A DNA stretch of 52,775 bases from a virus (taxonomy: Duplodnaviria; Caudoviricetes), in the IMG/VR virus record IMGVR_UViG_3300030329_004607, positions 1-52,775 of that record; one strand, written 5' to 3'. Position numbers and translations under genes: made by a program. The stretch's first letter is position 1, and every line of letters starts with the position of its first letter. The notes beneath the pieces were generated by a model. The model saw nothing but the letters and a program-made list of their open reading frames with translations, had not been told where the DNA came from and searched no databases. Below, piece after piece: positions 7,854 to 51,980 of the stretch.

Positions 7854-7928
7854 AAGGGGGTGGGCTTGTAGGCTGGTTACCTACTGCAAGTGTTTTGTAT
7901 TTCCTTGCACCTTTCTACCCACCCTCTT
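7854..7928 (+). ncRNA. Candidate three-way-junction cis-regulatory RNA
   Basis: Closing stem AAGGGGGTGGG/CCCACCCTCTT encloses GTAGG/CCTAC and TGCAAG/CTTGCA hairpins. Confidence 0.5.
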
Positions 7929-7949
7929 TTAACTGAAAGGAGAAAAATA

Positions 7950-16659: not shown

Positions 16660-17175
16660 ATGGCTGATACAGAAGAAAAGGAGACAATACTTGAAATGTT
16701 AGATAGAAAATTAGGCGGTATAGAGGTAATTGATGATGAAATGGCAAGTCAAAACTTTAAAGACTCACTTGCCATAGGTCATACAGTAGAAGATAAGGTA
16801 TGTGCAAAGATAAGAAAGAAATATCGTAAAGCATATGTCAAACAAGGTTACTGTAAAGGATATGATATATATGTTCCTGAGAATGGAATGAAAGTAGAGG
16901 TTAAGCAAGATAAAAAATCAAATTTTACAGGGAACATTGTTGTTGAGATTGAGTTTAATGGCAAGCCTTCAGCTCTATCTACTACAGAAGCACATTACTG
17001 GGTATTTGATGATGGAGAGAAATACATGTGGATAACACCAAAGATATTGAGACAAATCATTGAACCATTGAGACCTGTTAAGTTTGTAGGTAATGGAGAT
17101 AACAAATCTAAGTTAGCTTATCTTGTTAAAAAGGATATTATTATTTCTAATTGTTTAAAGGTAGATAAGTATTAA
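16660..17175 (+). CDS. PD-(D/E)XK-type endonuclease
   Basis: G...E, YD....VEVK.D....TGN..VE. Confidence 0.7.
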   Translation: MADTEEKETILEMLDRKLGGIEVIDDEMASQNFKDSLAIGHTVEDKVCAKIRKKYRKAYVKQGYCKGYDIYVPENGMKVEVKQDKKSNFTGNIVVEIEFNGKPSALSTTEAHYWVFDDGEKYMWITPKILRQIIEPLRPVKFVGNGDNKSKLAYLVKKDIIISNCLKVDKY

Positions 17176-20100: not shown

Positions 20101-23100
20101 TGCATTTGATCTAAAGTTATATTATCTGCTTTAAAGGTTGTATCTCCAAAAATTTCAGTTCTAACTTTATTATATCCTTTTAAATCAGCTTTTTTAACTC
20201 TTCTATCAAGACTATCCATTCCACCCTCATGCACTTCTCTATTTAGTTTTTTTATTTCAGCTTTTGCTTGAGGACTTTGTTTCGCTGTTTGATATTTAGT
20301 TATGAATTCTTTTGCTCTTTGCTCTGGAAGATCACCTTTCATTACTCTTTCACCAAGAATACGAGCAACATCATTTTTATTATGAACATTTAATTTATGT
20401 TTTAAGTGACTCCAAAACTTGTTAAGGAAATTTTTAACCTTTCCTATCATTGTTTTATTTTTCATGTTACCAGCAACATATTCACCGATAGCTTGAACCA
20501 TGTTTTCTTCACCTCTAAACATACGTTCACCATCTTTGATAAGTTTTTTACTTTTCTTATCTCCAAAGGCACGAAGAACATCAACAACATGGTGAGACAC
20601 CTCATGCGGAATAGTATCAGCTCTAGCATCTCCTTTAGCTATATCAATAAGATGACCAGTAACACGACCAAGAACAGCTTCTCCTTGAAACTTTCCTAGA
20701 GTATCCTTTAATTGTATATCAAGTTCTGGATAAAGTTTTTTAAAATGGTTTATTTGTGATTTTAATTGATCAACACTTATTCCTAAACTTTTAGATGCAC
20801 TTTCAAGTTGATATTTTGTTTCTTTAGTCCCAAATAGTTCTGATAATTTATTGCTTCCATCAAGAACTGATATATTTTCAGTTAAAATATCTTGTATAAT
20901 TCCACTAAGTTCTACCTTAGTTGCTTCTGGCATAGTTCCTTTATAATACTTGTTTACAACTTCAGAACTACCCTTATGCCCAAGATAAAAAGATAATAAA
21001 TCTTTTTGCCTTTGTGTCATTCCAACTTGATCAGCTCTAGTTTCTATAAACTTTCTTACATCTTCAACACGAATATTAGCTTTATATAAATCTTTTATTA
21101 ATTCTGGAGTATTTTTACTTTTAAATATAGGATCATTTTTACCAACTTTATTTTCTTTTATAATTGTTTGTATTTTATCATATAAATTTTTTGAAATTTT
21201 AACAGGTCTTGGATTGCCACCACCCTTTTTAACAAGACCTGGAGTAACATGATAATAATATTCCATCTTACCTTTTATTTTTTTCTTTTTAATATTTGAT
21301 GGAGTAAGGGCGTTAAACTCACCAGTACGAACACCAAGACCTTCTACACCATGTAGGGATGCAGAAACATGAAGTTCTTTTTGTTTTGTTGTTGATTTAT
21401 TGAATGTTGGTAGCTTTTTTACACTTTTAGCTATATCTGCTTCAAGATTAATTTCTCCTATAGCTTCTATTCTCTCACCTGCGATACGTTCACGAATCTG
21501 TTTTGCAAGTTGCCAAACACCTTTATTAGATAAATCTTGTTTTCTAAATGGTTGCTCTATAAGTTTTTTATAACCTGCCCAATCAACAAATTCAGAAAAT
21601 GCAGTTGCCATTGGCTCTGGTCTTAAAGGAAGATTTGGATCACGACTATCAATTCCTTGTAAAATTTTCTTTATATCATTTGGTTTAATTCTTTCAATAG
21701 AATCTTTACCAAGGAATTTTAATCCTTTAGCAATTAATCTCACAGAACCTTTATTACCCTCTCCTGCTTCAACCCAAGCAAGTAAAGAATTTTTTGTAAC
21801 ATTATCTTTTATTTCTGGAATATGTGTTTTTTGTTCTGGAGGTTTCTCAAAGTCAATTAAAGTTTTTTCAAGTTCACTTGTATCACGATATGAAAAATCT
21901 TTATCTTTTCTTTTTATTTTAAGATTTTCTTGTACTTGCTTCATCTCAGCAGAAGTAGTTGCAATATCTCTATATCTTGTTGTAGCACCTTCACGACCAG
22001 TAGCTATTGCTTCTGTTTCAGCGAGTTCACCTTTTTCTTGCTTTATTAATTCTGTAGCTTGTTTTCTACCTTCTGGCGTATCAATATCAAGCTCTGACAC
22101 ATCTATACCAAGAGATTCACTTTCTTCAAGTATTTTCTTTTCAGTATATATGACTTTACCTTGACGATCTCTTACTTTGTCACCTTTCCATGTATCAGAT
22201 AATTTTAATAATTGTTCTTTATGTTTTTTAAAAGAACCTAAAAGACCTTCATACATTGGATTTATAGGATCAGTAGCATGCTCTATAAGCTTTTCAACAG
22301 CTCCAATTTGCTCACTAACATTGGTTATCAATCTATTTGCTCTCTCAGTAGAACCTTCAGTAATACCATCAACATAATCACTTATAAGTATTTTTGTTTT
22401 TTCTTGAGATGATTGTAAATCTTCTTTAAATTTTATATATTTTTCATCTACACCTCTTTTTTCCTTATGAAGAGTGTCTGCAATTTTTTCATCATTTATA
22501 GCTTCCTCAATATCTCCTTGCTCTCTCTTTTCTCTTGCTCTTTCCCTTATCTCTAATTCCTGTTTATCGAGAATACTTGCATGTCTTGGATTTCCTTCAC
22601 TATCTACACCATGTTTAGCTTTTTCAGCTTCTTCTAAAAGTTTATAATGCTCCATACTTTTAGAGAATACTTTATGCATTCCTTTTGTTATTCCAAATAA
22701 ACCAAGATCAGCAACTAATGATACACCTATATCTCTCCATCTAACGTCTTCTCCTTTTGCAACTGCTGTTACTACATCTCCTGCAGTATATACAGCTGAT
22801 TCTGCTCCTATTTGACCTACAGGGCTAGTAAGTCCAAGCAATGTCCTTTCCCCTTTTGATATTGCTTCTGTTGCTTCTTCTCCTGCTTTAGTAGCAATTT
22901 TACCTGCTTTGGAAAATTTATCTAAAAGATGTGCATTTGAATAGGCTAAACCTCCACCAGCAGCACCAGCAAGTCCACCAAGTATACCTCCATGCATAAC
23001 GCCCTTAGCAATACCGCCCATTACATCTTCACCATTTACACCTGCTTGCACTCCACCCATAGCACCTTCATATGAGGCAAGTGTAAAAGCTTGTCTTGTA

Positions 23101-23612
23101 GCAAGTTCGCCCATTGAATTTTTAAGAGTTTGTTTAACCTGAAGTTTAGAAGCCTCTTTAGCTGTTTGAACGCCAAGTCCTTTTAATACTAAACTTCCTG
23201 CTCCTGCACCTGCACCTAAAGCTATAAGGTCAAGTGGCATTATAAATGAAGCAAGCATTGAACCAATGTCTTCAAGAATATTAGGATCATAATCATCAAG
23301 ATTATATCTTTGCTTTCCTGTTACTAATTGTTCTGTTAAACCTGTAAGGGAATTATTATAACCAGCTTTCCAAAAATCAGCAGAATTTTCATCTATCCCA
23401 TAATCAAACCATGATTGAAATCCATTCATGAATGTAGGAGATGTATTAGCATCTTTTTTAACTTGTGCTTTATTATCTACCTCATTCCAAGAAAGATTTG
23501 GATTATCTCTTTTTAAATATTTGTAAATTCTTTCATCGCTAAGTCCATCTACTGCATAGTCTGAATTACGATATTCATCAATAGCACTTTTTACATTTAA
23601 TGGTATTGCCAT
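17172..23612 (-). CDS. Giant internal virion (ejection) polyvalent protein with tyrosine-recombinase and zincin metallopeptidase domains
   Basis: Last gene of the structural operon; Gly/Ala-rich hydrophobic N-region; R762..R853..LGH879..Y889; HEVSH at 1003-1007. Confidence 0.75.
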   Translation of the reverse strand: MAIPLNVKSAIDEYRNSDYAVDGLSDERIYKYLKRDNPNLSWNEVDNKAQVKKDANTSPTFMNGFQSWFDYGIDENSADFWKAGYNNSLTGLTEQLVTGKQRYNLDDYDPNILEDIGSMLASFIMPLDLIALGAGAGAGSLVLKGLGVQTAKEASKLQVKQTLKNSMGELATRQAFTLASYEGAMGGVQAGVNGEDVMGGIAKGVMHGGILGGLAGAAGGGLAYSNAHLLDKFSKAGKIATKAGEEATEAISKGERTLLGLTSPVGQIGAESAVYTAGDVVTAVAKGEDVRWRDIGVSLVADLGLFGITKGMHKVFSKSMEHYKLLEEAEKAKHGVDSEGNPRHASILDKQELEIRERAREKREQGDIEEAINDEKIADTLHKEKRGVDEKYIKFKEDLQSSQEKTKILISDYVDGITEGSTERANRLITNVSEQIGAVEKLIEHATDPINPMYEGLLGSFKKHKEQLLKLSDTWKGDKVRDRQGKVIYTEKKILEESESLGIDVSELDIDTPEGRKQATELIKQEKGELAETEAIATGREGATTRYRDIATTSAEMKQVQENLKIKRKDKDFSYRDTSELEKTLIDFEKPPEQKTHIPEIKDNVTKNSLLAWVEAGEGNKGSVRLIAKGLKFLGKDSIERIKPNDIKKILQGIDSRDPNLPLRPEPMATAFSEFVDWAGYKKLIEQPFRKQDLSNKGVWQLAKQIRERIAGERIEAIGEINLEADIAKSVKKLPTFNKSTTKQKELHVSASLHGVEGLGVRTGEFNALTPSNIKKKKIKGKMEYYYHVTPGLVKKGGGNPRPVKISKNLYDKIQTIIKENKVGKNDPIFKSKNTPELIKDLYKANIRVEDVRKFIETRADQVGMTQRQKDLLSFYLGHKGSSEVVNKYYKGTMPEATKVELSGIIQDILTENISVLDGSNKLSELFGTKETKYQLESASKSLGISVDQLKSQINHFKKLYPELDIQLKDTLGKFQGEAVLGRVTGHLIDIAKGDARADTIPHEVSHHVVDVLRAFGDKKSKKLIKDGERMFRGEENMVQAIGEYVAGNMKNKTMIGKVKNFLNKFWSHLKHKLNVHNKNDVARILGERVMKGDLPEQRAKEFITKYQTAKQSPQAKAEIKKLNREVHEGGMDSLDRRVKKADLKGYNKVRTEIFGDTTFKADNITLDQMQRYQEYLVDHPANYGNSKSAEPIFRRIQDVNDKYHVHPEVAKASLELMGVEGGKYENASPETMKAYESMVRSEYEAPPVKDTNLTDHLMLREQDISKKQPWMYRYGRAVMPVWLVLKNYGGEAGKRISNRLLNHEWAEHVLYKGPGDQAINLIKTTLGKKKSKNAVLIFDKERADRLYQEGELSKSQQDFYEKVHGKNKDIKSDEYRAYQVWDRYKTEIWKELEKALLKHETPESAKTIMAEMKSIEVDNYMTRAWTKKALKYLHKDSNYINEMVEKQANQLAKKQAKEKAKSDTEAKVLEDKYKDPNSIEGEKLRSEIREEMFKALKYGYGHVKNPHLIPRKGLMKEYVDITNDRGIQEKIKVYDDTIEGTAGMYVRRMSKHLANVSYFPEWTGTGSKHKIHTGTLSEIVKLAEDGREGGGIATYANLAVERQLGFERDLKKSLASPLYKAGGIIASSSAAMGLSSPLSGMKNLAIGIPRSIGVHGFWRTMSGIKHMFDASAWHEARNKGYLEYGAKNLELDEIGFDVLGKKLNMRNLFKFNFMTQTENMNRIISSHAGQLYFDQVVSKLRGEKGMFKMKTNKSRMRRLMEEVWHLSGDEISFLENTKDLSSVDVKGKYSSIINKVGHFSHVTTQGGTSTVLLPLWMSSAEAKPLTLFQRMATATTIDIHRNFIKPIQEFGNFAPLLRATLAHSASGAALYFVFKEAFGKEPPTGSALTQDDGFSKAMLNLWRSEFFGLAGEVIPGLNPYERELGVPIIEPVIIRNILEANKQIAKVRGGGQTLGQAIKSWTKQTVVVANQAMTLFRTTLYKNSPYFKDFMATRAMVRTFKKQRNLPMFSGDGTISRRQPYYTDLKEAIMFGKEEDVAKAYWDAMSFVITDEGRVDPYSTPRKRYKKAQQAIKSVMSHYKPLNISDERKGTSKNLMNQFYDWLSPENEKMVRKVAKLYEYKNRDLQKIIRKSKWRNKYFAYPNNV

Positions 23613-37863: not shown

Positions 37864-40800
37864 TTAACCATTGTTACTTCTTGACATTTCAAACCAACTA
37901 CTTCCATCAAATATCAACGTAATTGTATCGTTATCAGTATCCATTGAAAAATCTCCAGATAATTGTAAATTTCCAGTAGCATCTTTACATACAACTGTTC
38001 GAGAGCTATCTTTTGCTCTTAATACCAATATTGCTCCTGCTGAACCACCATTTATAGTTACTAAATCATCAGAGCCTGCATCACTTTCTGTGTCAACTGT
38101 ATGATAAGATTGAGTTATAGTAATAGCACCACTTGCTATTGTTAACTCTGTTCCATTTCCAATTGCTACTCTTCCAGCTACATCTAGCTCTACACCTGGG
38201 GAGGGTTCTCCAATTCCAACATTTCCATTTTTATCAATAATCATTCTTGTAGCTTGCGTTGCAGTACCATCTGATGTTTGAAACAACATCTCTGCACCAG
38301 TATAACTATCAGCAGCACCAGTTGCACCATCTTGCACTACCTTGATCCTAGCAGGATATGTCCATGTTGAATTATTTGAGCCACGCCATTGTATAGATCC
38401 TAATAAAGTATTATCTGCTGTTGCTGTAAATCCCACAGTATCTTGATTTGAACGACCAAACTGAAGTTGAAATTCATTTGAAGCATTATCAGAATACAAA
38501 TTCATATCTAATTGAGAATCACCAGCGAGCTTATTTAAAGTTAAGATGTCTGCTGTAACACTAGCAGCACCCATAGATATTTTTCCATCGCTTTGAATGG
38601 ACATACGTTCTGTACCAGTTCTTGTGCTAGTATTTGCTGCTGTATTAAAAGTTATTTCTGTTGCTGCGTTATAGGAAGAGTGTCCTCCACCTATATCAAT
38701 TCTATTTGCTGAAGAACTAGCAAATGTCTCCATCATCATAAAACCTTCAGTTTCTGTTCCAGAGTCATATTGATGTGATAAGAAAATTGCTTGTTTATTG
38801 GTATCGTCAGTTTTATTATCAGCAGATATAAATTGACCTACAAGGTCAAGTTCTTGAAGTGGATCATCAGTTTTAATACCAACTTTTCCACCAGTTTTGA
38901 TTCTTATAATTTCTGGTCTTGAACTGTCGTGCCCTCCATAAATAATAAGATCATTTGATAAAGCACTAATTAAAGGAGGAAGAGTTCCACTATTATTATC
39001 AGCAAGTTCAATTCCTCCATAAGCATCTGTTGATTCAAACCTTGCGACTTGATTCGCAGAACTTTTAACATGTAAAGGTGTGTCTGGATCATCTTCTCCA
39101 ATACCAACATTTCCACCATCTTTAATCATCAGCACAGTTCCTTCAGCATCTACATCACTTGTAGTCCCTTGAACGACCCATAAGTCTCCAACATTGGTTG
39201 CAAAGCCTACTGTTTCACCACCACTTGCCTCTTCTAATAAAAATACTTCATTGTTAGAATTGGCTTTTACGTGCAATGGCATTTTTGGGTCATCTGATCC
39301 AATACCAACATTTCCTGCATCATCGATTCTCATTGCTTCTGTTGGAGGTTCAGCAGCAGTATTACGCTTAGTAAAAAATGCTAAGTCACTTTTGCCACCA
39401 GAACCTGTATCATAAGAAACTATTGCAGAACCACCATAAGTGTCATCACTTGTACTAAAAAGCATTGCAACAGTATCATTTGTACTCCCAGTTGGGGATC
39501 GAAGAACTAAATGATAATTATCCCAATCACCTAAGTCATCTGCTGCATTCAAATCTCTTTCAATGTGTAGTAAAGCACCTGGATTGCCAGTTCCAATACC
39601 AACATCTCCATCAGCTCTAATTGTTAAGTGTTGTGCTGATGTAGTTGTTCCAGCAAATAAATTAAAGACACCAGCATAAGTACTTAAGCCACCAACAATA
39701 TTTCCATCTCTTTCCATTGTAAAATAAGAAGCAATACCATTATCAGTTGTAGATTTATTGCCCATTCTAATATTAGCAGCTACATCTAAAAATTCTGCTG
39801 GATCATCAGTTCCAATTCCAACTTTGCCATCAGAGCCTTTAACAAATAAAGCATTTGCTGCACCAACTGCTTCAACTCTAAAGTCCATATCATTGCCTTG
39901 TTCATTGAAAACTATTGTTCCATCACCAACAACTCCTTGTCCATATGAATTTATTTCAAACATATTTTTTGCAGTACCATCGTGCAATATTTCAATTGTA
40001 AGACCACCAGATTCATCTTCATTGGCAACGTGCTGACTATATCCAGCTATACTTGCATATGTGTTCATAACATTAGCAGAATCATCTCCTTTAAATCGTA
40101 TTATTCCCAATAAATCATCATCAGCTTCTGAATTGTCTCCTGTATTTTTCATAAAGTCTAATGTTCCAGCATTTATATCTGCATGTGTATTTTCAATTAA
40201 TAAAGTTGGCTTTGCTGATGTACTACTTTTTAAATGTAATAATTCAGTTGGAGCATCAGTTCCAATACCAACTTTACCTGTTGGTGTAATCATCATTTTG
40301 TTTCTTGTGTTTCCTTCATAAGCTGTAGCAAAGTACATTGAGGAAGCATCTGATGAATGGTTTGTAAATTGCATAACTATACCACCTGCAACCATAGAGT
40401 CATTTTCAAAGAAATAACCAGCATAATTATCATTTGTTGCATCAGAATTTTGAATACGTATACCTGGTATATTGCCTGGCCCACAATTTGTCCAAAGAGC
40501 TGTAGCTGTAGTATTTGAACCAGCAACATGAAGCTCTTGGTCTGGAGTTGTATCTCCAATACCAACATTTCCTCCCATAAATACACCAGGATAATTAGCA
40601 TCAGCACTTGCAACTACACTATATACTCCATAATTAGTAGTAGAGCCACTTCCAACCCCAGTTACATCAACCTTCAAGCCAGTTAAAACAGTTGTACTTC
40701 CAGCGTGATTCACAGTAGAACTACCACCTCCATCTAATGGAGTATCATCTACATCTATAAGTATTCCATGTACAGTTGCTTGTGCACTATCTGCTGTTAC

Positions 40801-41703
40801 ACCAGTTTTATTTACGTCAACATCTATTGCATATGTATTGCCAGTAGTAATAGTTGGATTATGGTCTACAAAAATTCCAGTTCCATTCGCACTTGTTTCT
40901 TCAATTGCCAATCTTCCACCTGGGCTAGTAGCTCCAATACCAACTTTTCCACTATTATCAATAAGCATTCGTGAAGTTCCTGCTGTATAAAAATAGAGAT
41001 TATCTGGGCCAGCGTGATCATATGTAATCCTACCAGCGTTAGCATCACCACTATCACCAAAATAAATATTTCCAGCACTACCAGTAGCCGAACCAATAGT
41101 TATGCCAGCATTTCCATTATTCTCAATAAAAAGGTCATCTGCTCCTGCTTCTGGAGTGACACTAGAATCTCCACTATAAATATGCAACTTACCTTCTGGG
41201 TTATTAGCTCCAATTCCAATATTACCATCAGACTTAAAGAATACTTTGCTTGAACCAGCTCTTTGAAAATCTAAATTCCCTGATGTTCCATCATTTATCA
41301 TTTCCCAATAGCTCGATGGGCTTTGGAATTTTAATACTGCATTTGCTCCAGCAGCTACTGACTCTATTTCTACCTTAACGTTAGCCGAACTTTTATAAAT
41401 ATGTAAATTTTCTTGAGGACTTGCAGTGCCAATACCAACATTACCACCATCTTGTAATGTTAATATATCAGTCCATGCAGTACCACTTGTATAGTTTGAA
41501 AAATGTAAATCATCATCACTTGCATTTACCCACAGCCTCCACTTATCAGCATTATCGTCTCCTTGATCTGCAAATAAATCAATTATTGCATCTCCACCTT
41601 CTCCTCCTACTACTTTAAGTACAGAAACATCACTGCTATATACTTTTACTGATCCAGATTTTGTGTTACTTTCGGTTGTCCATGAAGTATTCGATGAGGA
41701 CAT
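37864..41703 (-). CDS. Long tail fibre with ~12 G(N/K)VGIG..P modules
   Basis: Repeated G.VGIG...P...L(H/D)V junctions; distinct C-terminal tip domain. Confidence 0.8.
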   Translation of the reverse strand: MSSSNTSWTTESNTKSGSVKVYSSDVSVLKVVGGEGGDAIIDLFADQGDDNADKWRLWVNASDDDLHFSNYTSGTAWTDILTLQDGGNVGIGTASPQENLHIYKSSANVKVEIESVAAGANAVLKFQSPSSYWEMINDGTSGNLDFQRAGSSKVFFKSDGNIGIGANNPEGKLHIYSGDSSVTPEAGADDLFIENNGNAGITIGSATGSAGNIYFGDSGDANAGRITYDHAGPDNLYFYTAGTSRMLIDNSGKVGIGATSPGGRLAIEETSANGTGIFVDHNPTITTGNTYAIDVDVNKTGVTADSAQATVHGILIDVDDTPLDGGGSSTVNHAGSTTVLTGLKVDVTGVGSGSTTNYGVYSVVASADANYPGVFMGGNVGIGDTTPDQELHVAGSNTTATALWTNCGPGNIPGIRIQNSDATNDNYAGYFFENDSMVAGGIVMQFTNHSSDASSMYFATAYEGNTRNKMMITPTGKVGIGTDAPTELLHLKSSTSAKPTLLIENTHADINAGTLDFMKNTGDNSEADDDLLGIIRFKGDDSANVMNTYASIAGYSQHVANEDESGGLTIEILHDGTAKNMFEINSYGQGVVGDGTIVFNEQGNDMDFRVEAVGAANALFVKGSDGKVGIGTDDPAEFLDVAANIRMGNKSTTDNGIASYFTMERDGNIVGGLSTYAGVFNLFAGTTTSAQHLTIRADGDVGIGTGNPGALLHIERDLNAADDLGDWDNYHLVLRSPTGSTNDTVAMLFSTSDDTYGGSAIVSYDTGSGGKSDLAFFTKRNTAAEPPTEAMRIDDAGNVGIGSDDPKMPLHVKANSNNEVFLLEEASGGETVGFATNVGDLWVVQGTTSDVDAEGTVLMIKDGGNVGIGEDDPDTPLHVKSSANQVARFESTDAYGGIELADNNSGTLPPLISALSNDLIIYGGHDSSRPEIIRIKTGGKVGIKTDDPLQELDLVGQFISADNKTDDTNKQAIFLSHQYDSGTETEGFMMMETFASSSANRIDIGGGHSSYNAATEITFNTAANTSTRTGTERMSIQSDGKISMGAASVTADILTLNKLAGDSQLDMNLYSDNASNEFQLQFGRSNQDTVGFTATADNTLLGSIQWRGSNNSTWTYPARIKVVQDGATGAADSYTGAEMLFQTSDGTATQATRMIIDKNGNVGIGEPSPGVELDVAGRVAIGNGTELTIASGAITITQSYHTVDTESDAGSDDLVTINGGSAGAILVLRAKDSSRTVVCKDATGNLQLSGDFSMDTDNDTITLIFDGSSWFEMSRSNNG

Positions 41704-41713
41704 TAATTACTCC

Positions 41714-42343
41714 TTATAAGTTTGGGACAGATAGTCCTCTAACACCAGATTTGCGAGACCTTTGCTTCATCATTTGGTTTTCATACATCTGTCTAAAATA
41801 ATTTGCTTGCTCAAAATTTCCTTGATCTTCGTATAATCTTGCTTTTGCATAACATACTAATTGTGGATGAAGACTTGTATCAAGACCAATATCAGTATCT
41901 AAATTTTCAGTAACCGCTGTAACATCTTCATACTTTGATTTATATGTTATACGAAGACCATTATCAATAAATAAAGATGTAAATGTTCCAGTTTCATTTG
42001 TAGCTGAACTTGAAGATGATCTAGTCATTGTAAATGTATTTGCATCAGATACAGTTACACTTTGACTTGAAAGATTATCATCATTAAAATTTGTTGTACC
42101 GCTTATAGTTACTCTATCATTTGTAGCAAGACCATGTGATGCAGACGTAAAGGTGATAGTTGTACCACTACAATCTGCATCTGTTATAGTTCCACTTAAA
42201 TTACCACTATCTTGAAATGTATCATATTTCTCTGTAGTACGTTCACCAGATGTAGTTGATGTTGTATCTAAACAAAGTATTGCTAATCTTTGATCATCAT
42301 TAAACCATGCAAAATAATCATTTGGATATGTACGACTTGCCAT
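41714..42343 (-). CDS. Head-tail adaptor-like protein, C-terminal half, with inserted beta domain
   Basis: LRITY...LH..LV.YAKARLYE...A.YF...Y; insert T...HGL.T.DRVTISG. Confidence 0.55.
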   Translation of the reverse strand: MASRTYPNDYFAWFNDDQRLAILCLDTTSTTSGERTTEKYDTFQDSGNLSGTITDADCSGTTITFTSASHGLATNDRVTISGTTNFNDDNLSSQSVTVSDANTFTMTRSSSSSATNETGTFTSLFIDNGLRITYKSKYEDVTAVTENLDTDIGLDTSLHPQLVCYAKARLYEDQGNFEQANYFRQMYENQMMKQRSRKSGVRGLSVPNL

Positions 42344-42352
42344 AATTAGCTC

Positions 42353-42658
42353 CTATTTAAGTTCATCTTCAGATGCATCAGTATCAGCTCTAAGTAATTT
42401 ATGTGGATCAGTTAATTTTGGAATCATGATATATCTATCATTAGTATCCAATATTTCCACCTTCTCAACACTTAAAACTGTAGCAGGGAGATCATACCAA
42501 CGCTTCTTCTTTTCAAGATCAGTAGTTGCAGAAACAGTATATACTTGTTTCTTATTGGCTATATCCATTAAACCATCATTAAGAATTTGCAATAAATACT
42601 TTTCTGGCTGCCTACCAAAAAGTTTCTCTAGTTGACCTATAACTGTTTTAACTGTCAT
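42353..42658 (-). CDS. Head-tail adaptor-like protein, N-terminal half
   Basis: MTV..V..., L..LNDGL.DI, YDLP...L.V..VE. Confidence 0.55.
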   Translation of the reverse strand: MTVKTVIGQLEKLFGRQPEKYLLQILNDGLMDIANKKQVYTVSATTDLEKKKRWYDLPATVLSVEKVEILDTNDRYIMIPKLTDPHKLLRADTDASEDELK

Positions 42659-43155
42659 TATGCAACATCATCCAATATAGCACATATTGTGCATCTTACA
42701 GTGCCAGTTGATGTTGCAGCATGTATATCCGCAGCATCTAAACCATCTTTAAATTTTAAATTTATAGCTTCATTAGCACCTATCTCAACAACATCTCCTA
42801 CTGATGCTGCATCTCCAGCATCTAAACAAATATAAACTTTAGCTGCCGTAGATGTTGATCCATCTGTTGTTCCACTATTTTTAATAAATAAAAATTTTAC
42901 ATGATCAGCATCCTGTGTTGTACCGCCTTCTGTGAATGCTGTTCCAGCTGCTATTAAATCAGCACTTGTGCCAGTAACATCTCTTGATGCACTATATACC
43001 CATTTATCATTAGCATCTGCTTTTTCATATTCTATAACACCACCTAATGTAGTCTTTATATCATGATGCATAGCATCTACTGCATCTGCGTCTGAGTCTG
43101 CTGCTATAGTAACTACTGGGGTCATGCTTACTGCACCCCTTGCTTTATCTGCCAT
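42658..43155 (-). CDS. Hypothetical virion protein
   Basis: 165 aa, A/D/T-rich, FLFIKNSG motif. Confidence 0.6.
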   Translation of the reverse strand: MADKARGAVSMTPVVTIAADSDADAVDAMHHDIKTTLGGVIEYEKADANDKWVYSASRDVTGTSADLIAAGTAFTEGGTTQDADHVKFLFIKNSGTTDGSTSTAAKVYICLDAGDAASVGDVVEIGANEAINLKFKDGLDAADIHAATSTGTVRCTICAILDDVA

Positions 43156-43158
43156 TTT

Positions 43159-46100
43159 TTATCTCCCTTGTTGTTGTTGTTGTTGGGGTATTCCCCCACT
43201 TATTAATTGTTGTAATCCTTGCTGATAATCAGCCTTTAATTGTGAATATTGAGATTGTAACCATTGATAATCAGTTGTTTGTTTTTGCAACTTAGCTGAA
43301 AAATCACCAATCTCTGCTTGATATTTTTGTAAACTTGATGCATTAGATGCAGATACCTTCTGTACTTCAGATTGATACTTTTGAATACTTGTGTCAAATG
43401 ATGCTCTATTTTTTGTAAGTTCTTGTGTAAATATTTGAACATTAACATTTAACTCTGAACCATAAGTTCCTACTTCTGCTTGATATTTTTGCAACTTACG
43501 AGTCTCATTTGTATCACTTAATTGTGCATCTTGAATATCTTTTTGCAATTTAGCTTGATACTCTATATTAGCATCATTAAATTCGTTCAATGAATTTTGC
43601 ATGTTAGATTGATATTCTTGCAATAGACTAGAATAATCATTTTGATACTTTTGAAAGTTTTGATTCCACTCTTCATTTATCCATTCTTGTATCTTTGTAT
43701 TAACCTCAGCTTGATAAGTTTGAACCTCTGCCTGATATTTTTGCAGTTTACGAGCTTCATTAGCATCAGATAATTGAGCTTCTGTAATCTTTTCTTGTAT
43801 CGTAGCTTGATATATTACATTCTCTTTATTAAATTCATTTAATTCATTTTGCATATTAGAACCATAAATAGATATATTGTCAGATTCAGTTTTAGCCCAT
43901 GCTTGATATGAAGTATTTAATTCTAATTGATATTGAGAAAGTTTTTGAGTATACTCTTGTATATCCGTATTTACATCTGATTGATATGCTGATATTTCAG
44001 ATTGATACTTTTGAAGCTTTTGAGCATATTCTTGATTCTCTTTTTGAAGTAATAAACTTGCTTCTTGCTGTGCATCTGTTGCATCTAATTGTGCTTGTTG
44101 TTGTGCTTTTTGTGCATCTAATTGTGCTTGTTGAATAGCCTCTTGTAGTTTTACTTGATATACTGTATTAGACTCATTAAAATCATTTAAGTTATTTTGT
44201 ATATCTGAATTATATTGTGAAATACTATCAGATTCTGCTTTAGCCCATGCTTGATAAACAGTATTTAATTCTGTAGTATATCTTGATAATTTTTGTTGAT
44301 ATTCTTGAGTTTGCTTATTAACATCAGTTTGATATGATGTTAATTCAGATTGATACTTTTGCAATTTCTTAGCTTCATTAGAATCAGATAGCTGAGCTTC
44401 TTGAATTTTCTCTTGTATTGTGGCTTGATAAATTGCATTTTCTTTATTAAATTCATTTACCTCATTTTGTATATCTGCTTGATAAATTGCAATATTGTTA
44501 GATTCTGTTTGAGCCCAAGCTTGTTGTTTAAGATTTAATTCTAATTGATATTGAGATAATTTTTGTTGATATTCTTGAACTTGCTTAGAGACTTCTGCTT
44601 GATATGAAGATAATTCATTTTGATATTTTTGTAACTTTTTAGCCTCATTAGCATCTGATAATTGTGCTTCTTGAATTTTTTCTTGAACAGTTGCCTGATA
44701 AATTACATTTTCTTTATTAAACTCATTTAATTCGTTTTGTATATCTGCTTGATAAATAGATATATTATCAGATTCAGTTTTAGCCCAAGATGTATAAGAT
44801 GTGTTTAATTCTAATTGATATTGAGATAACTTTTGTCCATATTCCTGTACATCTTTATTTACATTTGCTTGATAAGCACTAAGCTCAGCTTGATATTTTT
44901 GAACTTTTCTTGCCTCTTCTTGATTATCAAATTGTGCATCTTGAATATCTTTTTGAAGCTTTGCTTGATATTCAATATTTTCTTCATTAAATTTAATTTG
45001 TTCATTTTGTATATTAGCTTGATATTCATTTAACTGCGCACTTATCTCTTGTAATTTCGCACTTGCAAGTTCAATATCTTCATTAGTATCTATATAAGTA
45101 TTAACTTGTGTAAAATCTGGCGATACAACTGGTTGAGTAAACGTAGGGGCTGTGCCTGATATTGTTACAGATGTAGTAGATAAAGATGGAGGAACTGGTG
45201 CTACATGAGATGTTGAAAATACGTCAGGATCAGTTTCAGTTAATCCGCTTGTATAATTAGCAAATGAAGTTTGAACATTTCTTACAGGCTTAGTATATGT
45301 TGGAGCAGAACCAGAAAAATCAGCAACAGTTTGTGCTGATATAGAAGGTGCTACAGGCAATACTGCCGTAATACCTATATCAGTACCAGGGTCGGTTGCT
45401 GTCAATCCGCTTGTATAATCACTAAATGCTACCTGAGAATTTCTTACAGATTTAATATATGTTGGGGCAACTCCAGAAAAATCAGCTACAACTTGAGCCG
45501 ATATTGATGGCGCAGTTGGAGGAACTACAGATATAGATAAAACTCCAGGATCACTATCGCCAAAATCTGTAAGAGTCCAATAATCATTAAATGCAACTCT
45601 ACTTGTAAGTGATGGCTTTACATATATTGGGGCTGCTCCAGTATTTGTTAAAGTAGTAGAAGAAACTGTTATAGTTCCAATTGTAGGCGTAGAAAAGCTT
45701 GGTGTAGCTGGAGCTACTGGAATTGCACTTGTAATAGATAAAGCTCCAGGATCAGCCTCATCTAAGCCACTTGTATAAGAACTAAATGCAGTTTGCGACA
45801 TTACAGGCTTCGTATATGTAGGTGCACTACTTGAAAAATCAGCTACAGTTTGTACTGATAAACTTGGAGCTACAGGAGCACTTGGTAATGATAAATCTCC
45901 TACACTTCCAAGAGTTGGAGCACTAAATACTGGTTTTACATATGTTGGAGCTGTACCTGTAATAGTTACTGATTGAGCAGATAAACTTGGTACTGAAGGC
46001 TTAACTGGTACTATAAAATCTGTTGGAGCTGACCAAGTTGGTAAAGACTCACTTATAGTCTCTATTACTGGAGCAACTATATCAGATGGCAAATCGCTTT

Positions 46101-46641
46101 GCTTTGAATTCATTTGTTGATGTAATGCTTTTGTAGCTGCATATAATACTACAAGATATTCAGCTTCATCTGGAAAATTAGCTATCGTAGATACTCCACT
46201 TGCATCTACTGTTGGATATGATATATGATGAACATATGCTACTTGAGTTGCTTCTGGATCAGGCTTAACAAATAATGTACCAGCATCAGAAGTATTACTT
46301 GCAACCCAAAAAACTGGATCGCTAGCTGTTCCATAATAATCTAATGAATCTTCATCTGTTGCAAGACCACCATATATAGCTGGTATTTCTCTACATGGAA
46401 CTTGGAATCCACCACTATTTGCAGAAAGACGTGTAACATATAATATATCACCAACAGCATCTAAATCCATTGTAGTTGCTGAATTATTCAATAAACTAAC
46501 AGTTGCACATTTAGCTTTTAATTTAGGAGGCATGACATTTATTATCTCCTTAGCCCCATCAGCCATCCATTGATCCATTGCAGTCTGATCCGTAAATCCA
46601 GTCCCAACTAAATCTTGTATTTGTGCATCATAGTTAGCCAT
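43159..46641 (-). CDS. Head-tail adaptor-like protein with a giant mirror-repeat extension
   Basis: N-terminal ~175 aa adaptor-like (DGAKEIIN...V.PDP...FPDEAE.LVVLYA), then P/T/S repeats and 90-aa coiled-coil repeats. Confidence 0.7.
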   Translation of the reverse strand: MANYDAQIQDLVGTGFTDQTAMDQWMADGAKEIINVMPPKLKAKCATVSLLNNSATTMDLDAVGDILYVTRLSANSGGFQVPCREIPAIYGGLATDEDSLDYYGTASDPVFWVASNTSDAGTLFVKPDPEATQVAYVHHISYPTVDASGVSTIANFPDEAEYLVVLYAATKALHQQMNSKQSDLPSDIVAPVIETISESLPTWSAPTDFIVPVKPSVPSLSAQSVTITGTAPTYVKPVFSAPTLGSVGDLSLPSAPVAPSLSVQTVADFSSSAPTYTKPVMSQTAFSSYTSGLDEADPGALSITSAIPVAPATPSFSTPTIGTITVSSTTLTNTGAAPIYVKPSLTSRVAFNDYWTLTDFGDSDPGVLSISVVPPTAPSISAQVVADFSGVAPTYIKSVRNSQVAFSDYTSGLTATDPGTDIGITAVLPVAPSISAQTVADFSGSAPTYTKPVRNVQTSFANYTSGLTETDPDVFSTSHVAPVPPSLSTTSVTISGTAPTFTQPVVSPDFTQVNTYIDTNEDIELASAKLQEISAQLNEYQANIQNEQIKFNEENIEYQAKLQKDIQDAQFDNQEEARKVQKYQAELSAYQANVNKDVQEYGQKLSQYQLELNTSYTSWAKTESDNISIYQADIQNELNEFNKENVIYQATVQEKIQEAQLSDANEAKKLQKYQNELSSYQAEVSKQVQEYQQKLSQYQLELNLKQQAWAQTESNNIAIYQADIQNEVNEFNKENAIYQATIQEKIQEAQLSDSNEAKKLQKYQSELTSYQTDVNKQTQEYQQKLSRYTTELNTVYQAWAKAESDSISQYNSDIQNNLNDFNESNTVYQVKLQEAIQQAQLDAQKAQQQAQLDATDAQQEASLLLQKENQEYAQKLQKYQSEISAYQSDVNTDIQEYTQKLSQYQLELNTSYQAWAKTESDNISIYGSNMQNELNEFNKENVIYQATIQEKITEAQLSDANEARKLQKYQAEVQTYQAEVNTKIQEWINEEWNQNFQKYQNDYSSLLQEYQSNMQNSLNEFNDANIEYQAKLQKDIQDAQLSDTNETRKLQKYQAEVGTYGSELNVNVQIFTQELTKNRASFDTSIQKYQSEVQKVSASNASSLQKYQAEIGDFSAKLQKQTTDYQWLQSQYSQLKADYQQGLQQLISGGIPQQQQQQGR

Positions 46642-47752: not shown

Positions 47753-49129
47753 TTAATTAAGGTCTGTGAATGAATATAAAGCATGAGTTTCAGGAATTGT
47801 TATTTCAAGTCCTGCTTCCGTTAGGATCATGTCTTTACGTAAATCTTCATCAGCCTGTTGTACATTAGTTATAATATGAGTATCACGATTCAATCCATTT
47901 CCAACAAGTGGACGATAAGCTAACTGTTTCATATCAGCAAGTAATAAGAAGCCAGCAGTCATACCACGAAATAAAGGTTCACGAACAATACTAAGATCGC
48001 CATGAACTGTATTAAGTTGCATGATTTTGTGTCCAAAAGAGCCATTACGATTTTCAGCACTCCAATTATATCTGTTTCCAGTATTACCAGAGTCTTGAGA
48101 AACGTCTACAAAGCTATTATTTCCTATCTTGTTGAAATAAGAGATCACAGGTAGACCAGCTAAAGCGAGTTTATTATTACTTCCACCCCTTGCAGGATCA
48201 AAGAATGTCTCGAAGTCAGATAGAAATACATCATAAGTGAATGCAGTTGAAGCAGCAGCTCCAAAATATGGACTTCCTGCGGTATATGAAAGTGACCCAG
48301 GAGTTCCAGCTTGAACTCTATTTATAATGTCTCCACATAGACCAGCAGAAGTTTGAACGCCATTTTGACGACCCTTCTGCCCAAAGAGCATTCCTCTCTC
48401 AATGTCTACTTTATGTTCTCTTAGTTTAAGATTCCAGATTCGTGACCATTCATTTGCATATCCACGATAGTTAGTAGCAATAGCTGTGTTTGTCATTTCA
48501 GCAGCTGTTTTGAAGATTTGAGTGTAACCAAAATCATCATCTAAAGACTTAGACCATACATCAGGAGACCCTGAACCTTCTTCAAAAGCAGTACCAATAA
48601 CTTGACAAGCATCACCATCTGCGATTGCATTATAGCCAGTCTCACTTGAGTTACCAGTACTCAAACATGTCACTTGACAAGTTGAATATGATGATTCATG
48701 TGTAACTGAATCTATTCTTACAACCATATGTGATTTGCCATCAACAACATCAACCGCAACCATCATTCCTTTTATAAGAAAATCAACAGAAGCATCACTT
48801 CCATTTTCAAATAAAACTTGACCGCTTGTACCTGCTGTAGCAGTTAATGCAGATTGAGCATTAAATGATCTACTCGTCCAATCGATCTTAGAACGATTTT
48901 CTAAGAAACGAAATACAGGATCAGTTGTTGGTACTTTACTAACCTTATTTAAATATACAAAAAATGGAGACTCTTCTGGCGATAATTCAGCAACTCTATC
49001 ACCCCAATCGTATAGTCTACGTTGGTCACCAGCTACACCATGTGCAGCAGCATGTGCATTAGCGATAGTGGTTGCAGCACCTGTACTGGATAATGATCCA
49101 GAACGGATTGTGTTTGCACTATTTGCCAT
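47753..49129 (-). CDS. Major capsid protein (DUF5309/SU10-like HK97 fold)
   Basis: Portal-scaffold-MCP synteny; P.E.PF, EG, YTQIF, H..DIE...LFG and E.GLE motifs. Confidence 0.88.
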   Translation of the reverse strand: MANSANTIRSGSLSSTGAATTIANAHAAAHGVAGDQRRLYDWGDRVAELSPEESPFFVYLNKVSKVPTTDPVFRFLENRSKIDWTSRSFNAQSALTATAGTSGQVLFENGSDASVDFLIKGMMVAVDVVDGKSHMVVRIDSVTHESSYSTCQVTCLSTGNSSETGYNAIADGDACQVIGTAFEEGSGSPDVWSKSLDDDFGYTQIFKTAAEMTNTAIATNYRGYANEWSRIWNLKLREHKVDIERGMLFGQKGRQNGVQTSAGLCGDIINRVQAGTPGSLSYTAGSPYFGAAASTAFTYDVFLSDFETFFDPARGGSNNKLALAGLPVISYFNKIGNNSFVDVSQDSGNTGNRYNWSAENRNGSFGHKIMQLNTVHGDLSIVREPLFRGMTAGFLLLADMKQLAYRPLVGNGLNRDTHIITNVQQADEDLRKDMILTEAGLEITIPETHALYSFTDLN

Positions 49130-49940: not shown

Positions 49941-51980
49941 TTATTTAGGCGATTTCTCTTTACTTTGAGTTTGACTACGTTTCTTTTCTGCATCTGTCAC
50001 CAAACGTAATTTCTCTGTTTCGAGTTTGACCGCATTAGATAATTTATCAATTGAAACTTTATTTTGAGTCTTAGAGTCATATTCTTGTTCTTTAAGTTTT
50101 CCTTTGAATTTCTCAACTTCAACTTTTTTACGTGATGAAACTGATTCACGATGAGCTGTTTGTAAATCTCCACTAAGCTTTTTAATTTGCTCTTGTGCAG
50201 ATTCTAGCTGTTGCTGTAGTTGTTGTACAAGGTCAGTTCGTTGCAATACGCCCTCTTTATCAAAAATTTCTGTTTTCTTTAAGGCTTCTACTCTATCAAT
50301 AAGCCCTGCTTGGTATGCTTCCATGTAAACATTCCATTCACCCCATTTATTAGATGGCATGGTGGAATTGCCAATTATCCTAACATCAAAGCTCCCAACA
50401 CTTAAATTGTTTTCAATGGTCTGAAGTTCCTTCGTCTTATCATCATATAATCTTTTATTAACTGTATATTCGGTAAGATCATTATTAGGTTGAACTATTC
50501 TAAATGTTTTTTGAAAAGTATAATGTGATTTGGCAAGATGATACATTAACTTACCAAGTCTTTTTAAACTTGCCTCAACATCTCTTAATTTAGATTTAGA
50601 ACGTCTTTGACCGAAATCTTCCATCATCATAGTTCCAGATGATGTTCTTGGAGCTGCACTTGTATCTCCTTGTTGCATCTCAAATATTCCAATGTTTAAA
50701 TCTATGTAATGTTCTACCATTTGAGGTAATTGTAAAATTGAACCAGCAAGTGGCTGTGGAGAGGGAAAGTGAGGTTCACCAAATGAAGCGTCATATTCTA
50801 TCGTTGCATTGGGATTCGCCCAATCACGTTCAAGTTCTTCAACATCTTGTACAGAACCTTGAGGTATTAGCAATTTCAATCCAGACGATGCCTGCGCATG
50901 CGAGGTGATCAAAGACATTACTTTATTCAAGAACCTCTGAAATCCCTTGTTCTTACGAACATCACTCATAGGGTAAGGTGTATTTGTCCAAATATTTGGC
51001 ACAGGTACTAGAGGGAATATATTTGTATCTAATACGTTTTCGTATAAAACAACTTGACCCACAACACATGTTACCTTAATACGTGTTTGTTGTACTTGTA
51101 CAATATCAAAAAGACCCCTATCAAATGCTTCAGCAGTTCTTTCATCTGCTAAAAGCTTTTCAAGTCCATCATTATCTAAAACTTTTTCTTGCCCAGACTG
51201 AAGATCAACTACTCTAAAGAATGGCATTTTAACTTTTCTAAAATCTTCTATTAATCTATATTTTTCAGCTTGATTTCCCCAATCATAATCTTTAGTTCTA
51301 TCTGGTGTAAATGAGCCCCCTTCTTGTCTATTTTGAGATACAGGATAATCATCATCAGTAACAGCTACACTTTCAATATTATCAATTAAAACATCACCAT
51401 TTTCATCTGGAGTATTTAGCATTGGATAATTATCTAATAATTGCTCTCTTGTTAAGACTGTAGATAATTGCATTCCTGATGCATCATCAAACCATTTATT
51501 CCTACTATTAGGATCAACCACTACACGAAATGGATCAACATATGTAAATTTAACTTCACCTCTACCATAATCAGCTTCTTGATCAATATAACCATAAAAA
51601 TAACCAAGACCAGCAACGGAGAAATCATGTATTACTTGTTTGAATACTTCGTCTCCATCAGAATTATCCCAAATATATTCTAATATGGTTTTCCATACAT
51701 TCCCAAGTTTTGTGTCCGAATCCTCTCTGCCAACGGCAGAAAATTTTGGTGGCTTTGAGGTGATGATTGCTTTGAACTGTTCAATAGCAGCATAGAGACG
51801 ATCAATGGGTAACCCCATTTGATTTCTCTCTGCTAAATCATTTGCTTCCTGATCAGTGAAATGGTTGCCTAGATAGAAATCTATATCCTCTCTAGCCTGC
51901 ACATCCCAATCAGCACGTGCATCAAACCATCTCCTCCAGCGTTCTTTTATTTCTTCTGCTCTTTTATCTTGCTCAATCAT
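49941..51980 (-). CDS. Portal protein (P22-like)
   Basis: D..FY.G.H, VDPF...DP, FP.VP and SG...motifs, C-terminal coiled-coil barrel; follows terL. Confidence 0.9.
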   Translation of the reverse strand: MIEQDKRAEEIKERWRRWFDARADWDVQAREDIDFYLGNHFTDQEANDLAERNQMGLPIDRLYAAIEQFKAIITSKPPKFSAVGREDSDTKLGNVWKTILEYIWDNSDGDEVFKQVIHDFSVAGLGYFYGYIDQEADYGRGEVKFTYVDPFRVVVDPNSRNKWFDDASGMQLSTVLTREQLLDNYPMLNTPDENGDVLIDNIESVAVTDDDYPVSQNRQEGGSFTPDRTKDYDWGNQAEKYRLIEDFRKVKMPFFRVVDLQSGQEKVLDNDGLEKLLADERTAEAFDRGLFDIVQVQQTRIKVTCVVGQVVLYENVLDTNIFPLVPVPNIWTNTPYPMSDVRKNKGFQRFLNKVMSLITSHAQASSGLKLLIPQGSVQDVEELERDWANPNATIEYDASFGEPHFPSPQPLAGSILQLPQMVEHYIDLNIGIFEMQQGDTSAAPRTSSGTMMMEDFGQRRSKSKLRDVEASLKRLGKLMYHLAKSHYTFQKTFRIVQPNNDLTEYTVNKRLYDDKTKELQTIENNLSVGSFDVRIIGNSTMPSNKWGEWNVYMEAYQAGLIDRVEALKKTEIFDKEGVLQRTDLVQQLQQQLESAQEQIKKLSGDLQTAHRESVSSRKKVEVEKFKGKLKEQEYDSKTQNKVSIDKLSNAVKLETEKLRLVTDAEKKRSQTQSKEKSPK

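Follow-up and report, generated by a model that had tools for sequence, protein, structure and literature searches.

The window analysed here, the complete record of an uncultured virus (IMG/VR record IMGVR_UViG_3300030329_004607; 52,775 bp with direct terminal repeats), carries at 43159..46641 on the minus strand a single open reading frame (ORF) of 1160 amino acids (aa) plus a stop codon, named P0001. Its N-terminal domain is of the type found in the head-to-tail adaptors of short-tailed phages, and the locus raises the question of what is formed by the long, repeat-built remainder of such a protein. We consider it likely that a loop of the adaptor has been expanded into a rod on the phage neck, namely a hairpin in which an extended strand and a helical arm are paired antiparallel and in mirror order. 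The observations behind this reading are the identity of the domain, the mirror order of the repeats, a law linking the lengths of the two arms, mirrored insertions and deletions (indels) between close relatives, and the covariation of repeat subtypes.

With regard to the N-terminal domain, residues 1–185 taken alone match the Pfam profile PF24175 (SU10_adaptor) with 29.4 bits, against a curated cut-off of 27 (E 1.3e-6). The match, which a scan with the full-length protein missed, spans residues 9–176 of P0001 and positions 11–159 of the 194-position profile. In the AlphaFold2 (AF2) model of P0001, the adaptor domain has a predicted local distance difference test score (pLDDT) of 71–87; this model is too poor for a fold search, and the fold comparison was made with the model of the homologue P0004 (N-domain pLDDT ~88). 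Foldseek aligned it with probability 1.0 and TMt 0.40–0.52 to the solved adaptors of phicrAss001, cyanophage A4, GP4, SU10, Pa223, VP1 and N4 (structures 7qoj_D, 9k09_d, 8jov_G, 7z47_A, 9nwi_A, 8zkk_B and 9lc0_H), and in a library of viral structures it matched, among others, entries labelled 'Tail tubular protein A' or 'Head to tail adaptor'. On the strength of the profile match, the fold matches and these names, P0001 is a head-to-tail adaptor with about 975 extra residues. It also has the gene position of an adaptor, flanked by the portal and capsid genes on one side and the tail genes on the other. Since the N-terminal domain is that of a podophage adaptor, the rod would sit on the neck, where the preliminary description of this locus had placed it. 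Searches by sequence alone returned little: tblastn against 50,697 phage records gave no match for the whole protein at E 1e-5 and none for the N-domain at E 1, a sequence search of the PDB with P0001 gave nothing under E 0.1, and the PHROGs match of the protein (E 1e-4) is only to a family whose function is unknown.

The other end of the chain is conserved as well, its C-terminal motif being retained in relatives from ~210 to more than 1300 aa. The SU10 paper describes an adaptor with a helix bundle, a fibre-dock domain and an embracing loop lodged in between the portal's clip domains, and solved relatives of the adaptor as dodecamers. By analogy, residues 1124–1160 of P0001 are presumed to form a portal-embracing tail.

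Between these two ends lie six Pro/Thr/Ser-containing units (a–f), a short turn and six helical units (1–6). The outgoing arm is marked by AP[TI][YF] anchors at residues 231, 273, 337, 392, 446 and 498 (spacings 42, 64, 55, 54 and 52), and the returning arm by N..YQ anchors at residues 555, 645, 735, 825, 941 and 1025 (spacings 90, 90, 90, 116 and 84); at the DNA level, Tandem Repeats Finder reports a 270-bp period with 3.1 copies at 44176-45024. A further tandem repeat of 33 bp (44059-44133; 2.3 copies, 85% matches) encodes the 11-residue QAQLDA.. repeats that lengthen helical unit 4, the extra length of this unit being added in steps of about three helical turns. In alignment A2, the turn residues E521, D522 and E524 do not vary. 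The preliminary description, whose feature began at 46100 (about residue 180, the end of the adaptor domain), had recognised the six repeats, the turn and the six helical repeats with their 270-bp period, and the anchors and the repeat finder confirm this arrangement as a part of the 1160-aa adaptor ORF.

The same description had claimed that the subtypes of the two arms follow each other in reverse order, and they do. Units a and f (SVTI.GTAPT) correspond to helical units 6 and 1 (NIEYQAKLQKDIQDAQ); the VADFS units b, d and e have their counterparts in helical units 5, 3 and 2 (YQAT.QEKI.EAQLSD), and the long unit c (64 aa) has its own in the long helical unit 4 (116 aa). Each unit consists of a head and a tail, and the register is shifted by half a unit, so that outgoing head i is matched by returning head 7-i, and outgoing tail i by returning tail 6-i. 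Matrices of similarity between the head segments agree with r = 0.87 under the mirror mapping and r = 0.03 under the parallel one, with 6 of the 720 possible permutations equally good; for the tail segments the values are r = 0.91 and r = -0.14, and 3 of 120 permutations do as well. The relationships among the repeat units are therefore mirrored, as had been expected, and the mirror order in P0001 is not due to chance.

The rule could then be followed through a family of considerable size. A word-indexed search with residues 1–560 found 160 proteins at E ≤1e-3 among 8000 scored candidates of 638–2030 aa, and a search for shorter relatives gave 528 matches among 1595. An exhaustive search with the N-domain in 1.84 billion cluster representatives returned 733 proteins at E ≤1e-3 (276 of them ≤1e-10), and in a scan of IMG/VR at least 599 stretches matched a pattern, 570 of them encoding a relative, the longest adaptor ORFs there reaching 1631 aa. 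The records of several relatives bear ocean-metagenome source labels. From 366 proteins, 233 (about 200 to 1281 aa) passed the completeness filters, those set aside having a partial N-domain match (46), no turn motif (38), no C-terminal motif (36), a start other than Met (12) or no N-domain hit (1). An iterated hidden Markov model (HMM) of the C-terminus drifted into the helical repeat and was not applied to completeness.

In almost all members, the turn motif E[DE].E[LMIV] occurs just once behind the N-domain. In the shortest (208–235 aa), the adaptor core leads straight into this motif, and the motif straight into the C-terminal L..DY..G...L; in 19 of the 233 complete relatives, whose outgoing arms measure at most 7 aa, core, turn motif and tail are directly joined. 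The rod is therefore an expanded adaptor loop; in longer members the inserts lie on both sides of the turn motif, which is thereby carried to the far end of the excursion. Of note, this distal tip is a variable cassette in some relatives (P0006, P0007, P0008, P0010, P0133; P0012, P0223, P0217), with an acidic/aromatic segment before the turn in some, and Ala-rich helix–helix modules (AQGY.. type) flanking it in others.

For the comparison of arm lengths, matches to an HMM of the N-domain and to the turn motif served as anchors; the outgoing arm was taken from the end of the N-domain to the turn and the returning arm from the turn to the C-terminus. In the 233 proteins, the two are strongly correlated (Pearson r = 0.90, Spearman 0.92). 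The ratio of returning to outgoing arm is ~1.0 where the outgoing arm is poor in Pro (69/79, 130/127, 190/182 and 256/258 residues in the two arms) and ~2.0–2.5 where it is rich in Pro. When the outgoing arm was divided into Pro-containing (ext) and Pro-free (hel) 15-residue windows, the returning length was fitted by 1.95 × ext + 0.66 × hel + 32 (R2 0.95, root-mean-square error 35 aa), and 30 ORFs from IMG/VR loci, non-identical to the first set, gave the coefficients 2.04, 0.94 and 14 (R2 0.96). Two helical residues of 1.5 Å each per extended residue of ~3 Å give both arms an equal span, and a ratio of 1:1 is the expectation for a helix–helix hairpin. The matched arm sizes across homologues, and the compatibility of helical with extended lengths that had been noted for single units of P0001, thus hold across these proteins, with a slope of about 2 helical residues per extended one.

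The types of module agree between the arms as well. Cognate pairs were read off 19 relatives. Among the heads, outgoing SVTITGT goes with returning YQAKLQKDIQDAQ, VADFS with YQAT.QEKI.EAQLSD, DPSS[FY] with YQAILQEY.QEAQLLD, the long STTL.N.G with a QQEASL.LQKE insert, and AYTDA.N.DAS with an extra-long KFNK..DQAL insert. Among the tails, FSAPSLGS.G goes with EEWNQNF, AP.ISDLSI (in a 42-aa unit) with VWQ.ERQTD (in an 83-aa unit), and ..YTSGL..DPG or YWTL.DFGD.DPG (54-aa unit) with AWAKTESD (90-aa unit). The order of the modules varies from protein to protein and the mirror rule is retained. In 75 complete proteins, the summed edit distance between the arms is 62 in mirror order and 159 in parallel order, and 1000 within-protein shuffles gave a mean of 134 and a minimum of 116. 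Perfect matches between the arms number 23 in mirror order and 1 in parallel order (shuffles: mean 5.9, maximum 11). They include proteins unseen beforehand, for example P0026, P0032, P0039, P0045, P0091 and P0097; at least one of the remaining mismatches, that in P0001 itself, is a miss of the regular expression. Covariation extends to subtypes of a single module: in 58 pairs from 47 proteins, all 12 YWTL tails are accompanied by [RH]Y..ELNTVY, and SGL tails go 17 times with SQYQ and 8 times with RY (Fisher p 7e-5); at least six of these 8 form, by eye, a subtype of their own (T[TA]RVAFS with [RH]YS.ELNT[AS]Y..DS[LF]QQY).

Close relatives differ by indels that follow the same rule. P0002 is a 95%-identical relative of P0001 (93–98% in three blocks) and lacks residues 303–423 (121 aa) and 689–894 (206 aa) of the latter; these gaps lie 98–218 residues before the turn and 168–373 residues after it, that is, in the same interval scaled by 1.70. 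In 17 close pairs whose arms each align at ≥80% identity and differ in length, and which share proteins and are therefore not independent, both arms have changed in the same direction in 12, the returning arm only in three, the outgoing arm only in two, and the arms in opposite directions in none. The ratios of the concordant pairs cluster at 1.93–1.98 (42/83, 45/87, 65/127 and 86/166), with a median of 1.93. A pair of 98–100% identity with mostly Pro-poor, helical outgoing arms differs by 125 and 119 aa, a ratio of 0.95. Furthermore, some relatives form what looks like a stepwise series, with outgoing/returning arms of 99/212–214 aa in P0149 and P0165, 99/162 in P0138 and 77/162 in P0153.

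The physical character of the arms differs markedly. In the returning arm, which contains 17% Gln, 6.8% Tyr and 31 YQ dipeptides in 605 aa, hydrophobic residues recur with a period of 3.62 overall and of 3.58–3.74 in the individual predicted helices, and most hydrophobic residues of each helix fall within a 120-degree arc, in one narrow and nearly straight stripe. In the outgoing arm, Ser makes up 15.5% of the residues, Thr 14.9%, Pro 11.3% and Val 11%. Across 203 proteins, the aromatic content of the returning arm increases with the Pro content of the outgoing one (rho 0.41), and an aromatic ladder may pack on the extended, Pro-containing strand. The AF2 output was read as pLDDT and secondary structure, and its bearing on the pairing is indirect. 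For P0004 (alignment of 28 rows; mean pLDDT 75.7, predicted template modelling score (pTM) 0.42), the outgoing arm is predicted as coil with a pLDDT of 50–78, compared with 33 for a disordered end, and the returning arm as helices of 46, 89, 83 and 104 aa, interrupted by breaks of 1–5 residues about 20 residues past each unit anchor. The confidence profile of P0001 is itself mirrored, with 50–80 at base and tip and 22–40 and 46–65 in the middles of the arms. A complex prediction with the arms of P0004 as separate chains scored 0.12, against a mark of 0.32, and was not used either way.

Taken together, we can propose that the loop between the helix-bundle core of the adaptor, the ring protein beneath the portal, and its C-terminal tail has grown into a hairpin with arms of about 320 and 600 residues. 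The outgoing arm, rich in Pro, Thr, Ser and Val, would run out as an extended chain, reverse at the conserved acidic turn (NEDIELA) and return as a series of amphipathic Tyr/Gln-rich helices of 50–287 residues, each presenting its single stripe to the strand. The arms would be antiparallel, in register and built of modules with cognate partners; given ~2 helical residues to each extended one, the two members of a pair would span an equal physical distance, and both ends of the excursion would lie at the neck with the turn as the distal tip. An outgoing strand with a returning antiparallel helix is what the preliminary description had deduced, and the covariation and the mirrored indels speak for it. 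Tyr and Trp residues may form a ladder against the Pro-rich strand, in the manner of the streptococcal AgI/II stalk. Twelve copies per virion would then project as thin, segmented whiskers. If collinear, the 599 helical residues would measure ~90 nm, the 320 outgoing residues then covering ~2.8 Å each; the ~80-nm whisker suggested earlier is compatible with this, provided that ~80–90 nm is taken as an upper bound that holds only for collinear helices. Length would evolve by stepwise compensatory indels in both arms. As for the function, the least certain step, we favour a neck whisker or antenna for first, reversible contacts, or an organiser of fibres. A more specific version, to which we give slightly less than an even chance, sees in the rod a self-registering zipper of at least eight interchangeable cognate module pairs, by which the whisker could be tuned from 0 to ~100 nm or more through stepwise compensatory indels.

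Several points weigh against the hairpin rod. Direct contact between the arms is deduced from covariation and not from a structure, and AF2 renders P0001 poorly (30 rows; mean pLDDT 59, pTM 0.34, residues 259–444 below 50). The Pro content of the outgoing arm, only ~11%, is far from that of a classical polyproline helix. The regular expressions for modules and subtypes were hand-written after 19 of the same proteins had been viewed, and many of the proteins counted are related, so that the counts are not independent events. One arm alone changed in 5 of the 17 close pairs, and 10 of the 233 proteins (P0096, P0016, P0156, P0087, P0276, P0111, P0014, P0035, P0067 and P0042) depart from the length law by 60 aa or more. 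Mismatched forms therefore exist, as real intermediates, or they are errors in the assembly of repeats; either may be the case. The earlier claim that the length can change only by coordinated duplication is accordingly right in its tendency, with most pairs concordant, and too strong in its 'only'. Finally, adaptor length and the length of the first large downstream ORF, the fibre gene, are not significantly correlated (r 0.31, p 0.16, n=22), and a role as fibre holder draws no support from this comparison.

The mirror order and the length law would also suit arms that pair with other partners than each other. The strand could lie on the helix of a neighbouring subunit, or the hairpins of two, three or more of the twelve subunits could be bundled, and the neck would bear a smaller number of thicker fibres, or else a collar or a skirt, instead of twelve two-stranded whiskers. 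Both arms of every subunit start or end at the neck, so that both patterns are equally expected; the adaptor of solved relatives is dodecameric, according to the SU10 paper, and a single helix with a single strand makes a thin structure. Yet a stripe of ~120 degrees suffices for one partner and leaves little for a multi-helix core, and the period of ~3.6 differs from that of canonical coiled coils (3.5); we hold such an exchange of partners to be unlikely, though a serious contender. Somewhat less probable still is a rod of paired arms that folds at the short helix breaks (FDNQ / LSD.N) into a compact bundle ~13 nm long on the neck, in place of an 80–90-nm whisker. It would account for the way AF2 splits the returning arm of both P0004 and P0001 into separate helices (50–287 aa in P0001), for the regular placing of the breaks relative to the anchors in P0004, and for a weak, non-significant likeness that Foldseek gave between the helical part and designed helical-repeat proteins (E 0.015–0.4, rmsd >30 Å). 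The breaks, however, are just 1–5 residues long, the single stripe of each helix is already taken by the cognate strand, and relatives grow to 1631 aa, without any hint that their size is capped.

The pairing itself is denied if the rod consists of the returning helices, by themselves or together with neighbours, and the outgoing arm is a mere flexible linker, of sufficient length for the distal end and without specific contact. Such a tether also predicts about 0.5 outgoing residue per helical residue, and a Ser/Thr/Pro-rich composition is typical of linkers; the low AF2 confidence at residues 259–444 speaks for it as well. A linker, however, needs no matching of module order or subtype, whereas types and subtypes covary here in mirror order; the outgoing modules are conserved in sequence, and the ratio of ~1 seen with helical outgoing arms is predicted by packing and not by a tether. 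We therefore regard this explanation as very improbable. That the arrangement has no structural meaning, being the result of chance or of homogenisation of the repeats with diverged edge units, can be given hardly any weight. With the edge units of P0001 left aside, its single long unit would stand at the mirror position with a chance of one in four, but divergence of the edges does not predict that a and f resemble each other and so do 1 and 6, and the length law, the mirrored indels in pairs of 93–100% identity and the shuffled orders that obey the mirror rule in other proteins could not be produced by chance or by the homogenisation of one array.

How far the hairpin rod departs from known systems may be considered next. 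Its N-domain belongs to a known family: the podophage adaptors of SU10 (gp11), T7 (gp11, 'tail tubular protein A'), A4, GP4, Pa223, VP1, N4 and phicrAss001 are like P0001 in N-domain profile, fold and gene position. Their solved chains, however, have ~200–240 aa, whereas P0001 holds ~940 hairpin residues between core and C-terminal tail, and such an excursion is found in no solved adaptor among the structures retrieved. Literature searches, run on listings and abstracts and on openly readable text of the Xacm4-11 preprint, found no description of a phage adaptor with one. Long thin projections from the head–tail junction are familiar from T4 fibritin whiskers, phi29 collar appendages and the neck passage structures of lactococcal phages; these are separate proteins that attach to the neck, fibritin as a trimeric parallel coiled coil with heptads. 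The rod of P0001 is unlike them in being part of the adaptor chain and a hairpin, and no heptad (3.5) periodicity of the fibritin kind was found in its returning helices, where the best period is 3.62 overall. A weak profile similarity to Apolipoprotein A1/A4/E (PF01442) at residues 627–823 reflects 11-residue-like amphipathic repeats; at 24.6 bits against a cut-off of 90, it is a resemblance of composition and period only, and membership of that family was rejected.

The closest likeness is to the stalk of AgI/II (SspB), a single chain that folds back so that helical repeats run antiparallel to Pro-rich extended repeats in a long thin fibril, as is proposed here for P0001. AgI/II repeats measure ~82 aa (A) and ~39 aa (P), close to the 83-aa and 42-aa module pair of the present family. 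The architecture of P0001 is thus unusual, as had been claimed earlier, and not unique. No Pfam match to the A or P repeats was found in P0001, and Strep_SA_rep gave a score only in P0124 (E 1.1, 9.8 bits). The order of the arms is opposite to that of AgI/II, the extended arm of P0001 coming first and the helix returning; the apex of AgI/II is a globular domain, that of P0001 only a 19-aa turn (with larger tip cassettes in some relatives). AgI/II is a cell-wall adhesin, P0001 a viral ring protein with ~11% Pro and many interchangeable types of cognate module. The pairing in P0001 is deduced from the comparison of sequences. In a review, the A3VP1 fragment of AgI/II is 155 Å long, with an alpha-helix on a polyproline II (PPII) helix and aromatic–proline contacts, and a second AgI/II paper gives the stalk ~50 nm. 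The paired stalk of P0001 would work like that of AgI/II without shared sequence.

The coordinates of the parts of P0001 and of the neighbouring genes are collected in the table below.

Parts of the adaptor P0001 and other genes of the window, with positions in the 52,775-bp window
Feature	Residues of P0001	Position	Strand	Remarks
Adaptor domain, SU10 / T7 gp11 type	1-185	46087..46641	-	PF24175, AF2, Foldseek of homologue
Outgoing-arm proximal linker	186-218	45988..46086	-	SDLPSD...PSLSAQ; mirror position faces last returning segment
Outgoing unit a	219-260	45862..45987	-	head SVTITGT, short tail FSAPTLGSVG
Outgoing unit b	261-318	45688..45861	-	head VADFS, tail YTSGL..DPG
Outgoing unit c	319-382	45496..45687	-	long head STTLTNTG, tail YWTL.DFGDSDPG
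Outgoing unit d	383-436	45334..45495	-	
Outgoing unit e	437-489	45175..45333	-	
Outgoing unit f	490-505	45127..45174	-	head only, SVTISGTAPTF
Turn PDFTQVNTYIDTNEDIELA	506-524	45070..45126	-	19 aa; family-wide E[DE].E[LMIV] motif
First helical stretch past turn	525-554	44980..45069	-	
Returning helical unit 1	555-644	44710..44979	-	head YQAKLQKDIQDAQ, tail AWAKTESD type
Returning helical unit 2	645-734	44440..44709	-	
Returning helical unit 3	735-824	44170..44439	-	tail subtype SRY..ELNTVY, cognate to unit c
Returning helical unit 4	825-940	43822..44169	-	long head with 33-bp tandem repeat
Returning helical unit 5	941-1024	43570..43821	-	tail EEWNQNF, cognate to unit a tail
Returning helical unit 6 and proximal helix	1025-1123	43273..43569	-	
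Conserved C-terminal tail	1124-1160	43162..43272	-	DYQW..QY..LK.DY..GL..L and Gln-rich end; in relatives of all lengths
P22-type portal		49941-51980		structural module
SU10-type major capsid protein		47753-49129	-	458 aa
ORF directly downstream of adaptor		42658-43155	-	165 aa
Small ORF		42353-42658	-	101 aa
Small ORF		41714-42343	-	209 aa
Tail-fibre gene		37864-41703		1279 aa
Large ORF		17172-23612	-	2146 aa
Homing-endonuclease-like ORF		7890-8960	+	356 aa

In the structural region, the genes follow in the order portal, capsid, adaptor P0001, three small ORFs and the tail-fibre protein, with a GC content of ~28–40% near the adaptor gene. The order portal–capsid–adaptor–fibre is repeated in the related loci that reach far enough downstream, where the usual 3' neighbours of the adaptor are ORFs of ~150–185, ~92–127 and ~130–240 aa, followed by a large ORF. 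The 165-aa ORF behind P0001 belongs to no Pfam or PHROG family; an ORF of ~150–185 aa occupies this position in most related loci and is absent behind the 327–329-aa adaptors of loci L053, L077 and L078. Its product may be a partner of the rod. The 101- and 209-aa ORFs, for which related loci keep ORFs of similar size, match the SU10_adaptor profile weakly, at positions 1–77 (21.5 bits) and 113–184 (19.7 bits), respectively, against the cut-off of 27, and together they may represent a second, split adaptor-like ring.

The major capsid protein aligns over its residues 40–452 to the 292-position SU10_MCP profile, which implies roughly 130 aa of insertions, and has only four distant matches among phage records, at ~24–31% identity (Microcystis, Caulobacter, Polaromonas and Roseobacter phages). 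The 2146-aa ORF has no Pfam family, and several other large ORFs without family precede it in the structural region. The 356-aa ORF carries two NUMOD3 motifs and resembles a homing endonuclease.

Few parts of short-tailed phages are as conserved and as well solved as the adaptors, and here an excursion of up to ~1400 residues emerges from a single loop of one. If the pairing is true, it would provide a second, independent natural hybrid fibril of helix and extended strand besides AgI/II, with an evolutionary path made visible by mismatched intermediates, and its many cognate module types and natural length variants would be useful for protein design and for the study of co-evolution between distant segments of a gene. 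The zipper reading, if true, would mean that this widespread adaptor family of ocean phages contains a natural modular ruler whose pairing code can be read, an architecture not previously described in viruses. For the abundant uncultured marine phages that carry it, the rod would be a previously unrecognised appendage, which may affect the encounter with the host or the attachment to particles.

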